Source: Escherichia coli (GTDB lineage Bacteria > Pseudomonadota > Gammaproteobacteria > Enterobacterales > Enterobacteriaceae). From it: a stretch of 64,000 nucleotides of DNA. The translations under genes and the position numbers were made by a program. Below are positions 9,853-19,610 of this stretch, one piece after another (within the stretch, counting starts at the first letter, position 1; each line of letters starts with the position of its first letter). The notes beneath the pieces were generated by a model. The model had not been told where the DNA came from, did not search any database, and saw only the letters and a list, made by a program, of their open reading frames with translations. The DNA lies in NCBI RefSeq assembly GCF_041248615.1, contig NZ_CP158426.1. One strand, given 5' to 3'.

Positions 9853-10398
9853 ATGAACGTAATTAAAACTGAAATTCCTGATGTATTAATATTTGAACCA
9901 AAAGTATTTGGGGATGAGCGTGGTTTTTTTATGGAAAGCTTCAATCAGAAAGTTTTCGAAGAAGCTGTGGGGCGGAAGGTTGAATTTGTTCAGGATAACC
10001 ATTCTAAGTCTACTAAAGGAGTAATTAGAGGATTACATTTTCAATTACCACCTTATTCACAGGCAAAATTAGTACGCTGTGTAGTAGGTGAGGTATATGA
10101 CGTTGTTGTTGATATAAGGAAAGATTCTAAAACTTTTGGCAAATGGGTCGGTGTAAATCTTTCTGCTGAAAACAAGCGACAGTTGTGGATTCCAGAAGGA
10201 TTCGCCCATGGTTTTGAAGTGATTAGTGAAGTCGCTCATTTTTTATACAAAACAAATAATTATTATAATGCAACTATGGAAAAAGGTATAAGATGGGATG
10301 ATGAATATTTAGCTATTAATTGGAAAGAAAAAAAAGCGATAATCTCTGAGAAAGACATGAAACAACCATCATTCAGAGAACTTTTTGAGAAAGTTTAA
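9853..10398 (+). CDS. rmlC: dTDP-4-dehydrorhamnose 3,5-epimerase RmlC
   Basis: 181-aa ORF; cupin-like RmlC sequence (DERGFF, RGLHFQ); markedly AT-rich compared with rmlBDA. Confidence 0.85.
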   Translation: MNVIKTEIPDVLIFEPKVFGDERGFFMESFNQKVFEEAVGRKVEFVQDNHSKSTKGVIRGLHFQLPPYSQAKLVRCVVGEVYDVVVDIRKDSKTFGKWVGVNLSAENKRQLWIPEGFAHGFEVISEVAHFLYKTNNYYNATMEKGIRWDDEYLAINWKEKKAIISEKDMKQPSFRELFEKV

Positions 10399-11832
10399 TT
10401 GATGAATAACAAACTAGCCAGGCAAGGATTATTATGGAGCACAATTGAAAGGCTAGGAACGCAAGCCATACAATTATTATTAATGTTGTATTTGGGTAGG
10501 GTTCTTGGACCAAGCTCTTTTGGTTATGTTGGTATGCTAACTTTATTTCTATCATTAGCTCAGGTTCTAATTGATAGTGGATTTAGTGCAGCATTAATTA
10601 GAAAATCGGAGCGTACTGAAAAAGATTATTCGACAGTATTTATATTTAATATTTGTCTATCAATACTAATATATATTGTACTTTATTGTTTATCTTCTTA
10701 TATTGCTTTATTCTATCAAATACCTCTGCTGGAATCTTTACTTGATATTTTAGCATTAACAGTTATAGCAAATGGTCTAACTTTAATCCCCAAGATTCAA
10801 CTCACTGTAGACGTGAATTTTAAGATCCAAGCTAAAAGTTCACTTATCGCTATTACCAGTAGTAGTGTAATAGCGATAACGTTAGCTGCTTTGGGTTATG
10901 GAGTATGGACATTGGTTTTCCAATCGTTATCCTATAGTGTCATAAATTGTATTGTACTGAATATTTATAATCCATGGTATCCAAAAGAGAAATTTTGCTA
11001 TGAAACATTCAAAAAGCTATTTTCATTTAGCAGTAACTTACTAATTGCTGGAGTACTTGAAGCTTTTTATTCAAATATATATCAATTAATTATAGGGAAA
11101 TTTTTTACACCACAGCTTGTAGGGCAATTTACACAGGCTAATCAGATCTCTAGCGTACCTGCAATGACACTTACTAATATTATTCAGAGAGTAACTTATC
11201 CACTTTTTTGTAATATTTATAATGGCAAAGGGAAAATAGATGATGCTTATTTAAACACACTTAAAATTGCAGGCGTTGTAGTTTTTCCAATTCTATTAGG
11301 AATAGGTTTAATCTCGAAGCCATTAGTCTCTGTATTATTAGGAAGTGAGTGGAAATTTACATCTGATATTCTGTTTCTACTTTGTATTGCATTTATGATT
11401 TATCCTATACATGCAATAAATATTAATATCCTACAGGTTCATGGGCGAAGTGATCTTTTTTTGCGTTTGGAAATACTAAAAAAGACATTGATGACAATTA
11501 TTCTTGTCATTACGATGCAAATAAATATAAATGCAATGGTGATTGGTTTAGTTTTACACTCATATCTTTCGTGGTTTTTAAATGGATTATTTAGCCAGAA
11601 AGTATCAACGATCACAATAAGGAAGCAGTTAAAAGAGTTACTACCTATATGGTGTCTATGTTTAATTAGTGGGTTAGGTTCTAACTATATTATAAATGAA
11701 ATAAGTATGGAACCTTTATTAAATATAATATTTACTATTTTATTAAATGCCATTATATACATCACACTAATTCGAATTATGTACAAAGAAATATTTATGA
11801 CTATTATTTCTCTTATAAAAAATAAGGGCTGA
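10399..11832 (+). CDS. wzx: O-antigen flippase Wzx (polysaccharide transporter family)
   Basis: 477-aa highly hydrophobic multi-TM ORF in AT-rich O-antigen cluster, directly after rmlC. Confidence 0.75.
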   Translation: MMNNKLARQGLLWSTIERLGTQAIQLLLMLYLGRVLGPSSFGYVGMLTLFLSLAQVLIDSGFSAALIRKSERTEKDYSTVFIFNICLSILIYIVLYCLSSYIALFYQIPLLESLLDILALTVIANGLTLIPKIQLTVDVNFKIQAKSSLIAITSSSVIAITLAALGYGVWTLVFQSLSYSVINCIVLNIYNPWYPKEKFCYETFKKLFSFSSNLLIAGVLEAFYSNIYQLIIGKFFTPQLVGQFTQANQISSVPAMTLTNIIQRVTYPLFCNIYNGKGKIDDAYLNTLKIAGVVVFPILLGIGLISKPLVSVLLGSEWKFTSDILFLLCIAFMIYPIHAININILQVHGRSDLFLRLEILKKTLMTIILVITMQININAMVIGLVLHSYLSWFLNGLFSQKVSTITIRKQLKELLPIWCLCLISGLGSNYIINEISMEPLLNIIFTILLNAIIYITLIRIMYKEIFMTIISLIKNKG

Positions 11833-11834
11833 AA

Positions 11835-17372: not shown

Positions 17373-18189
17373 CACTCCAAAGTTTTCTGTTTTGATGGCT
17401 ATATACATCAAGGATTCTCCCCTATTTCTCTCTGAGGCTTTACAATCAATTTATAAAAATACGGTTGCCCCAGATGAAGTTATTATTATTCGTGATGGTA
17501 AGGTCACATCTGAACTCAATTCTGTTATTGATAGTTGGAGAAGATATTTAAATATAAAAGATTTCACACTTGAAAAAAATATGGGGTTGGGGGCAGCGTT
17601 AAATTTTGGGTTGAATCAATGTATGCATGATTTAGTAATACGTGCTGATTCTGATGATATAAATAGAACAAATCGATTCGAATGTATACTTGATTTTATG
17701 ACTAAGAATGGTGATGTTCATATTCTTAGCTCTTGGGTTGAAGAGTTCGAATTCAATCCAGGAGATAAGGGCATAATAAAAAAAGTACCAAGTCGGAATT
17801 CTATACTTAAATATTCAAAAAACAGATCTCCTTTTAATCACCCTGCAGTTGCATTTAAAAAGTGTGAAATAATGCGCGTCGGTGGTTATGGAAATGAGTA
17901 CTTATATGAAGATTATGCCCTTTGGTTGAAATCTTTAGCTAATGGATGTAATGGTGATAATATTCAACAAGTTTTAGTTGATATGAGATTTTCAAAGGAA
18001 ACAGCAAAAAGACGAGGTGGAATAAAATATGCCATTTCAGAAATTAAAGCTCAGTATCATTTTTATCGTGCAAATTATATATCATATCAAGACTTTATAA
18101 TAAATATTATCACAAGGATATTTGTTAGACTTCTTCCCACTAGTTTTCGTGGCTATATATATAAAAAAGTTATCAGGAGATTTTTATGA
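17362..18189 (+). CDS. Glycosyltransferase, family 2 (inverting, GT-A fold)
   Basis: 275-aa ORF; N-terminal FSVLMAIY...DEVIIIRDG and ADSDD (DxD-like) motifs. Confidence 0.7.
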   Translation: MSDDTPKFSVLMAIYIKDSPLFLSEALQSIYKNTVAPDEVIIIRDGKVTSELNSVIDSWRRYLNIKDFTLEKNMGLGAALNFGLNQCMHDLVIRADSDDINRTNRFECILDFMTKNGDVHILSSWVEEFEFNPGDKGIIKKVPSRNSILKYSKNRSPFNHPAVAFKKCEIMRVGGYGNEYLYEDYALWLKSLANGCNGDNIQQVLVDMRFSKETAKRRGGIKYAISEIKAQYHFYRANYISYQDFIINIITRIFVRLLPTSFRGYIYKKVIRRFL

Positions 18190-19610
18190 GCTCACCTCTT
18201 ATTCCGGTTATATTAAGTGGTGGTAATGGTACTAGGTTATGGCCACTATCTAGAGAGGAATATCCTAAGCAGTTTTTAAAACTAACCGACTCAATATCAA
18301 TGCTGCAATCAACAATATCTCGGTTAGACTCATTAAATACTTCCTCTCCAGTTGTAATATGCAATGAATTACACAGATTTATTGTTGCAGAACAACTCAG
18401 GCACTTAAATAAATTAGATAATAATATTATTTTAGAACCATCTGGTCGCAATACTGCACCTGCTATTTGTATTGCTGCTTTAATTTTAAAAATGAAGCAT
18501 CCAAATGAAAATCCACTTATGCTCGTTCTTCCAGCCGATCACTCCGTAAAAAAAGTCAAAACTTTTTGTAATACAATAAAAAGTGCTATTCCCTTCGCTG
18601 AAGCTGGTAATTTGGTTTCTTTTGGTATTAAACCTACTCATCCTGAGACGGGGTATGGATATATACAAAAAGGCAAAGTGTTATCTGATTCTGATATATA
18701 TGAGGTCAGTGAAGTTAGAACTTTTGTTGAAAAGCCTAATCTTAAAACAGCAGAAAGCTTTATAGAAAAAGATGAGTATTATTGGAATAGTGGTATGTAT
18801 TTGTTTAGTGTTGAACGTTACTTACAAGAGTTATCATTATACCGACCAGACATAGTTAAAGTATGCCAGGAAACTGTTAAAAATATTCATTATGATATGG
18901 ATTTTATTAGATTGGACGATAAAATATTTCGGAACTGTCCACAGGAGTCTATTGATTATGCTGTAATGGAGAAAACAAAGGATGCTGTAGTTGCTACAAT
19001 GGATATCGGTTGGAATGATGTAGGAGCATGGTCTTCGCTTTGGGAATTAGGGAAAAAAGACTCCTCTGGTAATGTTATCACGGGAGACATCGTTTGCCAC
19101 GAGACAGAAAATAGTTATATTTATACTGAGTCTGGATTGGTAGCAACTATTGGTATTCAAGATCTTGTTATTATTCATACTAAAGATTCATTACTGGTTT
19201 CCAGACGTGATTCAGTACAAAATGTAAAAAATATTGTTCAGCATCTTGATTTGTCAGGACGTAAAGAACATAAAGAACATAGGGAAGTATTCAAGTCATG
19301 GGGACGATGTGACTCCATAGATAGTAGTGAAAAGTACCACTATCAGGTCAAACGAATAACAGTTAATCCAAGTGAAAAATTATCGTTGCAATTGCATCAT
19401 CACCGTGCGGAACATTGGGTTGTTGTAATGGGGATTGCTAAAGTTACAGTTGCAGAAGAAATAAAAATTTTAAAAGAGAATGAGTCTGTATATATTCCTG
19501 CAGGTATTAAGCATAGTTTGGAAAATATTGGGACAATACCACTTGTGTTAATAGAAGTTTGGACCGGTTCTTATCTTGCTGATGATGATATCCTTCGATT
19601 TGAAGATTGA
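18186..19610 (+). CDS. manC: Mannose-1-phosphate guanylyltransferase / mannose-6-phosphate isomerase ManC
   Basis: 474-aa ORF, nucleotidyltransferase N-terminus (SGGNGTRLWPLS) and C-terminal cupin; AT-rich. Confidence 0.85.
   Translation: MSSPLIPVILSGGNGTRLWPLSREEYPKQFLKLTDSISMLQSTISRLDSLNTSSPVVICNELHRFIVAEQLRHLNKLDNNIILEPSGRNTAPAICIAALILKMKHPNENPLMLVLPADHSVKKVKTFCNTIKSAIPFAEAGNLVSFGIKPTHPETGYGYIQKGKVLSDSDIYEVSEVRTFVEKPNLKTAESFIEKDEYYWNSGMYLFSVERYLQELSLYRPDIVKVCQETVKNIHYDMDFIRLDDKIFRNCPQESIDYAVMEKTKDAVVATMDIGWNDVGAWSSLWELGKKDSSGNVITGDIVCHETENSYIYTESGLVATIGIQDLVIIHTKDSLLVSRRDSVQNVKNIVQHLDLSGRKEHKEHREVFKSWGRCDSIDSSEKYHYQVKRITVNPSEKLSLQLHHHRAEHWVVVMGIAKVTVAEEIKILKENESVYIPAGIKHSLENIGTIPLVLIEVWTGSYLADDDILRFED

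Follow-up and report, generated by a model that had tools for sequence, protein, structure and literature searches.

An intact Escherichia coli O7 O-antigen gene cluster and predicted sugar donors for two of its putative glycosyltransferases

Gene content and organization of the locus

The O-antigen locus considered here lies in a stretch of 64,000 nucleotides from Escherichia coli contig NZ_CP158426.1 (assembly GCF_041248615.1), hereafter the window, and is built around an AT-rich block of 9758 bp (positions 9853 to 19610, from the start of rmlC to the stop of manC) which is almost certainly the serogroup-specific core of a Wzx/Wzy-dependent O7 O-antigen cluster at the usual galF-gnd locus. 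The gene order is galF-JUMPstart-rmlB-rmlD-rmlA-rmlC-wzx-vioA-vioB-orf248-orf273-wzy-GT4-wbbD-manC-manB-gnd-ugd-wzzB, followed by the his operon on the opposite strand. All of the cluster features placed below are on the plus strand, and model scores are given in bits against the cut-off of the model.

The conserved 5' flank of the locus is galF (5661..6554), placed from the RefSeq annotation of an identical record, with a guanine plus cytosine (GC) content of 0.519. It is followed by a JUMPstart element (6814..6852; Rfam RF01707, 61.1 bits against a gathering score of 35), within which a motif search found the ops motif GGCGGTAG at 6841-6848; this JUMPstart/ops element is the predicted RfaH-dependent antitermination site in the operon leader. 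The first gene behind it is rmlB (rfbB), encoding dTDP-glucose 4,6-dehydratase (6927..8012), the product of which passes both the subfamily model NF007490 (794 against 649) and the equivalog TIGR01181 (514 against 365). The mechanically called open reading frame (ORF) of rmlB begins at an ATG at 6858, 6 nt past JUMPstart, but this longer version is probably not real, since NF007490 aligns with residues 1-360 of the shorter product, from its very first residue, and so supports the GTG start at 6927 that RefSeq uses. Next come rmlD, dTDP-4-dehydrorhamnose reductase (8012..8911; NF007440, 659 against 308), and rmlA, glucose-1-phosphate thymidylyltransferase (8970..9848; NF012024, 678 against 588).

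The AT-rich block opens with rmlC, dTDP-4-dehydrorhamnose 3,5-epimerase (9853..10398; TIGR01221, 266 against 156; GC 0.337), and continues with wzx, the O7 O-unit flippase gene (10402..11832), whose product matches PF13440 (267.5 against 23) and PF01943 (109.8 against 28.2) and falls under the cut-off of all the NCBIfam equivalogs. Behind it lie vioA, encoding the dTDP-4-keto-6-deoxy-D-glucose 4-aminotransferase (11835..12947; DegT family PF01041, 337 bits; WP_000998544.1, which is also the accession of VioA in strain IAI39), and vioB, encoding the dTDP-Qui4N N-acetyltransferase (12949..13527; hexapeptide repeat PF00132, 34 against 27; WP_000323726.1, named VioB). The two genes that follow are the main subject of the later sections: orf248 (13524..14270), predicted to encode a GT-A-fold glycosyltransferase that may add 4-acetamido-4,6-dideoxyglucose (Qui4NAc) to mannose in beta-1,2 linkage, and orf273 (14270..15091), which matches no Pfam model, has a GT-A-like predicted fold and may encode an alpha-1,3 L-rhamnosyltransferase acting on mannose. 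The block is completed by wzy, the O7 polymerase gene (15088..16263; NF033860, Wzy_O6_O28, 270.6 against 75), a glycosyltransferase gene of the retaining family GT4 (16260..17372; PF00534, 107.9 bits), wbbD, encoding the UDP-Gal:GlcNAc-PP-Und beta-1,3-galactosyltransferase of family GT2 (17362..18189; PF00535, 63.5 against 23.3; WP_001278665.1, named WbbD by RefSeq and shared with IAI39), and manC, mannose-1-phosphate guanylyltransferase/mannose-6-phosphate isomerase (18186..19610; TIGR01479, 700 against 373; GC 0.347), the last of the AT-rich genes.

Downstream of the block are manB, a GC-rich phosphomannomutase gene paralogous to cpsG (19644..21008; NF011943, 1048 against 801), gnd, the conserved 3' flank (21172..22578, from annotation), and wzzB, the O-chain length regulator (24139..25119; NF012015, 606 against 267). 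From vioB through manC the start and stop codons of neighbouring genes overlap by 1-11 nt, which fits a single operon, and a consensus scan of 6400-25400 for promoters and terminators stayed at chance level (70 promoter-like hits against 62.6 expected, and 17 terminator-like hits against 14.1).

Composition of the block and its edges

An earlier reading of the same DNA, made without database searches (the sequence-only reading), had described a drop in GC content that starts sharply at rmlC and lasts through manC. This drop was confirmed by all of the composition measures used. The GC content of the block is 0.315, and each of its ten genes lies between 0.285 and 0.347, with a GC content at third codon positions (GC3) of 0.197-0.253; the most AT-rich genes include wzx (0.299) and wzy (0.295), the products of which are polytopic membrane proteins. 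In the DNA of the window beyond galF..wzzB, GC content is 0.51. When the whole 64 kb was scanned for its most AT-rich stretch of 9758 bp, the minimum was found with a start at 9801, and over 5-25 kb the maximum-likelihood fit of three segments put one change point at 9801, where rmlA ends, and the other at 19671, in the manC-manB gap, with segment GC of 0.454, 0.314 and 0.477, in agreement with the limits first drawn. A sliding-window plot, the check proposed at that stage, gave the same picture: all 19 of the 500-bp windows inside the block have a GC content of at most 0.364, against a mean of 0.510 (standard deviation 0.044) outside it, where values under 0.40 are confined to two isolated windows, one between gnd and ugd (22501-23000) and one between pduA and pduF (58001-58500).

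The 3' edge is sharp: in 100-bp windows, GC steps up from 0.35 to 0.55 across 19610-19710. The flanks had been described as GC-typical, and this holds for only one side of the block: manB (GC 0.552, GC3 0.65) and gnd (0.503) have a typical or raised GC content, whereas rmlB, rmlD and rmlA (0.436, 0.474 and 0.436, with GC3 of 0.37-0.39) are intermediate.

Identity of the cluster with serogroup O7

The block was compared by megablast with 5426 complete E. coli genomes. It is 100% identical over its 9758 bp to several genomes, including NRZ14408 and one deposited as 'O7:H15 strain ST70', and the entire window matches NRZ14408 (NZ_LT599825.1, 1987672-2051671) at 64,000 of 64,000 bases with zero mismatches, which identifies NRZ14408 or a clone of it as the source genome. 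Against IAI39 (O7:K1) the DNA identity of the block is 99.8%, or about 20 single-base differences; each of the 15 cluster proteins has 99-100% identity with its IAI39 counterpart, and Wzx and Wzy match theirs at every amino acid. In identical and related records RefSeq names the two membrane proteins 'O7 family O-antigen flippase' (wzx) and 'O7 family O-antigen polymerase' (wzy). The call of O7 follows from the identity of the block to O7 strains, from these RefSeq names and from the protein matches to IAI39, and what the sequence-only reading had offered as a guess, that the cluster was compatible with an O7-like one, is thereby borne out. The genes listed in that reading (rml, Vio-like, man, wzx/wzy and transferase genes) likewise proved correct by ORF map, Pfam and NCBIfam, and wzx and wzy turned out to be those of O7 and not of a serogroup whose O-unit lacks Qui4NAc, rhamnose or mannose.

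The O7 gene set is complete, and in O7 order, between galF and gnd. Every cluster ORF is full length, with the sizes annotated in NRZ14408 and IAI39, and no insertion sequence (IS) element or frameshift interrupts the cluster. The O7 cluster is long known, and the copy in the window is an ordinary intact locus. The rfb cluster of E. coli O7 strain VW187 has been published, according to the citations of Marolda, Feldman and Valvano (1999) in PMC6150544 and PMC6124807. The published O7 clusters of VW187 and IAI39 occupy the same locus with the same gene order, and differ from this one in nothing of substance, the sequence comparison having been made with IAI39.

Sugar nucleotide pathways and assembly of the O-unit

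Two of the nucleotide-sugar pathways can be read directly from curated models. RmlA, RmlB, RmlC and RmlD, which make up the dTDP-L-rhamnose pathway, all score above their NCBIfam cut-offs (equivalogs in the case of RmlD, RmlA and RmlC), as do ManC (an equivalog) and ManB of the GDP-mannose pathway. The Qui4NAc pathway is recognized instead by a signature, a DegT-type pyridoxal phosphate-dependent aminotransferase gene adjoining that of a hexapeptide-repeat N-acetyltransferase, with rmlA and rmlB upstream; RmlB is common to the rhamnose and Qui4NAc pathways. The best NCBIfam model for VioA is DesI (TIGR04427, 310 against a cut-off of 650) and the best for VioB is WbbJ (55 against 243), with NeuD/PglB/VioB (TIGR03570) at 40 against 161; RefSeq gives the names VioA and VioB because the sequences are identical to those of O7. 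Biochemical characterization of the O7 proteins VioA and VioB as the dTDP-D-Qui4NAc pathway, by 4-amination to the gluco configuration and subsequent N-acetylation, is credited to Wang et al. (2007) by PMC7685785 and PMC9271549. In the same way, PMC7685785 and PMC4202792 relay from Riley et al. (2005) that the activity of O7 WbbD forms Gal-beta-1,3-GlcNAc-PP-Und, the second step of assembly.

The sugars predicted from the sequence alone were rhamnose, mannose and Qui4NAc. All three fit O7, yet the list was incomplete, as galactose (added by WbbD) and N-acetylglucosamine (added by WecA) are also in the unit; both come from housekeeping precursors and are therefore invisible from the pathway genes of the cluster. 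The O7 backbone is reportedly that described by L'vov et al. in 1984, ->3)-beta-D-Qui4NAc-(1->2)-alpha-D-Man-(1->4)-beta-D-Gal-(1->3)-alpha-D-GlcNAc-(1->, and the same work is said to have placed a branch of alpha-L-Rha-(1->3) on the mannose. Such a pentasaccharide calls for four transferases after WecA. Four candidates had been counted in the cluster and that count is upheld, the two that match no family being modelled as GT-A folds, although less firmly for orf273 than for orf248.

On this basis, assembly of the O-unit can be proposed as follows. The cluster would be co-transcribed behind the JUMPstart/ops leader, and RmlA and RmlB would produce dTDP-4-keto-6-deoxy-D-glucose, a shared intermediate which RmlC and RmlD would convert to dTDP-L-rhamnose and VioA and VioB to dTDP-D-Qui4NAc, while ManB and ManC would supply GDP-mannose. 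WecA, encoded elsewhere, would place GlcNAc-1-P on undecaprenyl phosphate, and WbbD would then attach beta-1,3-galactose, an activity demonstrated by experiment for WbbD of O7. The GT4 protein is the putative alpha-1,4 mannosyltransferase, because the GT4 mechanism is retaining and the mannose linkage is alpha; after it, orf248 would attach Qui4NAc to the mannose and orf273 the rhamnose branch. The finished pentasaccharide would be flipped by Wzx, polymerized by Wzy to a chain length set by WzzB, and ligated to the core by WaaL.

Fold and family of orf248 and orf273

Searches of Pfam (with E-values up to 10), NCBIfam and the sequences of the PDB returned nothing meaningful for either protein, and RefSeq labels orf248 'glycosyl transferase' and orf273 'hypothetical protein' or 'sugar polymerase'. 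Both nevertheless belong to sizeable families. Word-indexed searching gave 524 matches for orf248, with invariant residues that include E116-N117-D118-Y119; 6 of 63 members of this family reach the GT2 model PF00535, the strongest of them at an E-value of 3e-6. The same kind of search gave only 10 matches for orf273, whereas an exhaustive profile search found 553 clusters at E<=1e-3, 49 of them at E<=1e-30. Among 40 diverse members of the orf273 family N91-D92, K224 and E231 are invariant, none of the 40 has a meaningful Pfam match, and a search of PDB sequences with the family profile gave no match. Two distant members, P0133 and P0138, sit on contigs of only about 1.2 kb. The word-indexed result had given the impression that orf273 is confined to Enterobacterales, which was rejected once members from Burkholderiales and from metagenomes had turned up with tblastn and in the exhaustive profile search.

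AlphaFold models were of high confidence for orf248 (predicted local distance difference test, pLDDT, of 94.9) and lower for orf273 (85.7). The model of orf248 shows a GT-A fold with the acidic motif after a central beta-strand, and both proteins are assigned from their models to the nucleotide-diphospho-sugar transferase (GT-A) fold class, more firmly in the case of orf248. The alternative that orf273 is not a glycosyltransferase at all and instead is a nucleotide-binding enzyme of some other kind or, as its label in some records has it, an accessory 'sugar polymerase', the fourth sugar being added by one of the recognized transferases or by an enzyme encoded elsewhere, is considered unlikely.

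Sugar donors suggested by gene neighbourhoods

If both proteins are transferases, their donors can be sought in the genes that accompany their relatives. Neighbourhoods were tallied for 8 contexts of the orf248 family and 9 of the orf273 family. A vioA-like gene is nearby in all 8 of the former, with rmlC/D nearby in 3; around orf273 relatives the corresponding counts are 5 for vioA-like genes, 7 for rmlC/D and 8 for manC. Relatives of orf248 in Pandoraea, Polaromonas and three metagenome contigs are all within three genes of a VioA-like aminotransferase gene, the product of which is 63-67% identical to VioA where tblastn detects it, and an acetyltransferase gene often adjoins as well. At three orf248 loci (L010, L011 and L012) the vioA-like aminotransferase gene adjoins and no homologue of rmlC, rmlD or orf273 was detectable nearby. 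Conversely, clusters of E. albertii, Enterobacter hormaechei and Hafnia paralvei carry an orf273 homologue with rmlDAC and manCB and are without vioA, vioB and orf248, and a relative of orf273 in Cupriavidus basilensis (23% identical) lies among rmlBDAC and manC without vioAB.

As orf248 tracks vioA-like genes while orf273 persists with rml and manC where vioAB and orf248 are absent, orf248 is more likely than not the Qui4NAc transferase and orf273 the rhamnose transferase. The opposite assignment, with orf273 transferring Qui4NAc and orf248 rhamnose, would be compatible with the folds, both being GT-A proteins suited to inverting transfer onto mannose, and the loci of O7, Kluyvera, Pandoraea and metagenome contig L013, in which the two genes are adjacent and accompanied by vioA, do not separate the roles. 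It is, however, improbable in view of the orf273 relatives retained by E. albertii, Enterobacter, Hafnia and Cupriavidus without vioAB, and of the L010, L011 and L012 loci, where the orf248 relative stands beside a vioA-like gene with no rmlC, rmlD or orf273 homologue detectable nearby.

The assignment of Qui4NAc to orf248 and rhamnose to orf273 can be extended to the families to which they belong, more tentatively. The presence of a VioA-type gene in every context examined fits an orf248 family dedicated to 4-amino-4,6-dideoxyhexoses. The combined proposal, that orf273 represents a glycosyltransferase family of GT-A-like fold, with about 550 clusters and no Pfam model or structure, the O7 member being an alpha-1,3-L-rhamnose branching transferase, and that orf248 represents a divergent GT2-like family for 4-amino-4,6-dideoxyhexoses, is put forward with slightly less than even confidence.

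Related clusters and the fate of O7 loci

Clusters with the same or similar genes were found at several distances from O7. The nearest are other O7 copies in E. coli. E. coli B and BL21 have the same O7 genes (99.8% identity to E. coli B C2566), the E. coli B copy being IS-interrupted between wbbD and manC (PMC3446290); it aligns in two pieces in megablast around an insertion of roughly 0.8 kb, whereas the copy in the window is intact. In NZ_CP182371.1 (Br_112_kylling) the O7 cluster has an IS4-family transposase gene in the rfbB-rfbA region and a second insertion of about 1.1 kb in the core. In E. coli TUM14759 (L003, 12570-14144) an IS1 replaces everything from the middle of rfbA to the 3' end of wbbD, and this strain is predicted to be rough and O-non-typeable even though it keeps O7 manC and the O7 flanks. 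Its 1.56-kb partial match was first entertained as a recombination junction with another serogroup, a reading rejected in favour of an IS1-mediated deletion within an O7 cluster. IS inactivation of the O7 cluster thus appears to recur.

Inactivated clusters in related genomes show that loss of the O-antigen occurs in this lineage, and it could be asked whether the source strain is itself phenotypically rough or O-non-typeable through defects beyond the window, in waaL, wecA or rfaH, on which the window is silent. With every ORF full length and 99-100% identical to IAI39, and with JUMPstart intact, this is considered quite unlikely.

Beyond O7 proper, a metagenome scaffold (L015, 2657-16740), homologues of which are labelled E. 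ruysiae and Escherichia sp. E3659, has an identical gene order from galF to wzz, but with core proteins that are 81-93% identical (Wzx 92%, Wzy 90%, orf273 81%) and flanking proteins that are 97-99% identical. This diverged O7-like type is absent among the 5426 complete E. coli genomes, and it might be typed in silico as O7, with a lower identity. Kluyvera cryocrescens (L008, L019) shows full synteny over rmlDAC-wzx-vioA-vioB-orf248-orf273-wzy-GT4-GT2-manC-manB at 54-81% amino acid identity in the core, differing in the rmlB region (35% match), and from this synteny an O-unit identical to that of O7, or much like it, is predicted. The clusters of E. albertii (L006), Enterobacter hormaechei (L007) and Hafnia paralvei (L004) have rmlDAC, manC, manB and homologues of orf273 and wbbD as in O7, to which the first two add rmlB and a homologue of the O7 GT4 gene; they differ in an additional, different GT4 gene and in wzx and wzy genes unrelated to those of O7. 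Their gene content predicts a related backbone without Qui4NAc. The E. coli O39, O49 and O116 clusters have the same dTDP-VioNAc (Qui4NAc) pathway genes, vioAB (PMC4732683). They are inferred not to be closely related at the DNA level from the megablast comparison, in which non-O7 genomes match rmlC only.

In Pandoraea apista (L009, 5221-10905) and in metagenome contig L013 (4739-10897) there is a module of vioA ... wzx-orf248-orf273-wzy with 30-66% amino acid identity to the O7 core, in DNA of Burkholderiales type and with a coding GC of 0.46-0.58. In Pandoraea, heptose-pathway-like genes (a SIS domain gene and an NTP-transferase/HAD fusion) stand in place of rmlC/D.

A private core between shared flanks

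At least 80% of the block is present in 94 of the 5426 E. coli genomes, all of these copies being close to identical, and the wzx-manC core was not found by megablast in this set beyond O7 genomes and their IS-damaged derivatives. Non-O7 genomes match the block only in its first 400 bp or so, within rmlC, at 78-82% DNA identity; rmlC is therefore a gene shared widely, present here as a diverged allele, and is not O7-only. The flanks are distributed quite differently. The rmlBDA genes are present in 2300 of the 5426 genomes, mostly at 80-95% identity, and manB matches 4674 at 95-99%, by alignment to cpsG of the colanic-acid cluster. Comparison with the E. albertii cluster gives the same division at the protein level, with RmlB/D/A 94-98% and ManB 98% identical, but RmlC only 78% and ManC 53%. 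Shared flanks around a private core are reportedly the established picture for enterobacterial O-antigen loci, from the work of Reeves and colleagues.

The manB gene is 94.6% identical in DNA sequence to cpsG of a closely related strain, with 94-100% identity through the body of the gene and divergence at its ends, where identity drops to 86% over the initial 100 bp and 72% over the final 70 bp. Such a pattern suggests that the neighbouring colanic-acid cluster may be the source of manB, through duplication or gene conversion, and the jump in GC content to 55% at manB is explained by its being a paralogue of cpsG at about 95% identity. More generally, the sharp edges in composition arise because freely recombining, species-wide flanks (rmlBDA, manB and gnd) here meet a serogroup-private core. 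That core is inherited as one unit, and is probably of foreign origin. The notion that its low GC content is instead imposed by the proteins themselves, for example by AT-rich codons in hydrophobic membrane proteins, agrees with the AT-richness of the polytopic wzx and wzy but was rejected as extremely improbable, since GC3 stays at 0.20-0.25 throughout the ten genes, those of the soluble RmlC, VioA, VioB and ManC included, and homologues of vioA, orf248, orf273 and wzy in Pandoraea and a metagenome contig are coded at GC 0.46-0.58.

Other features of the window

A complete propanediol-utilization (pdu) microcompartment operon, from pduA to pduU with a gene of the EutP/PduV family, together with pduF, pocR and the features listed next, takes up 43511-58042 (minus strand) and 58554-63912 (plus strand). 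After the pdu genes come a cobalamin riboswitch (60572-60746) and an ORF of 145 amino acids without a Pfam match (60965-61402), followed directly by cobU, cobS and cobT; in the window no cbi genes, for de novo B12 synthesis, lie between the riboswitch and cobU. Two small RNAs were matched at Rfam gathering scores, STnc230 (59422-59505, minus strand, 71 bits), in the pduF-pocR gap, and STnc240 (35158-35232, plus strand, 68 bits). The yefM-yoeB toxin-antitoxin pair (32728-33230) is directly upstream of the his operon leader and is annotated in the same place in NRZ14408 and TUM14759.

Assessment and implications

Several points weigh against the account given above and should be kept in mind. 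The samples on which the donor assignment is based are small (8 and 9 contexts), and neither rmlC nor rmlD lies inside 8 kb of the orf273 homologues of Pandoraea and L013. In the literature searched, the complete O7 repeat unit was not located, and what it confirms extends no further than the Gal-beta-1,3-GlcNAc element and the pathway to Qui4NAc. Expression of the O-antigen also requires wecA, waaL and rfaH, which are located beyond the window, and the foreign origin of the low-GC core is the standard interpretation.

The donor assignments for orf248 and orf273 constitute one modest new inference, the rest being already known, and even these roles may already have been proposed in the literature. 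In practical terms, the analysis allows the source genome to be called O7 in silico, a serogroup that covers lineages of extraintestinal pathogenic E. coli (ExPEC) such as IAI39 (O7:K1). The assignment of Qui4NAc to orf248 and of rhamnose to orf273 could, in turn, help to annotate related genes of polysaccharide loci that are now labelled 'hypothetical', several hundred in number.

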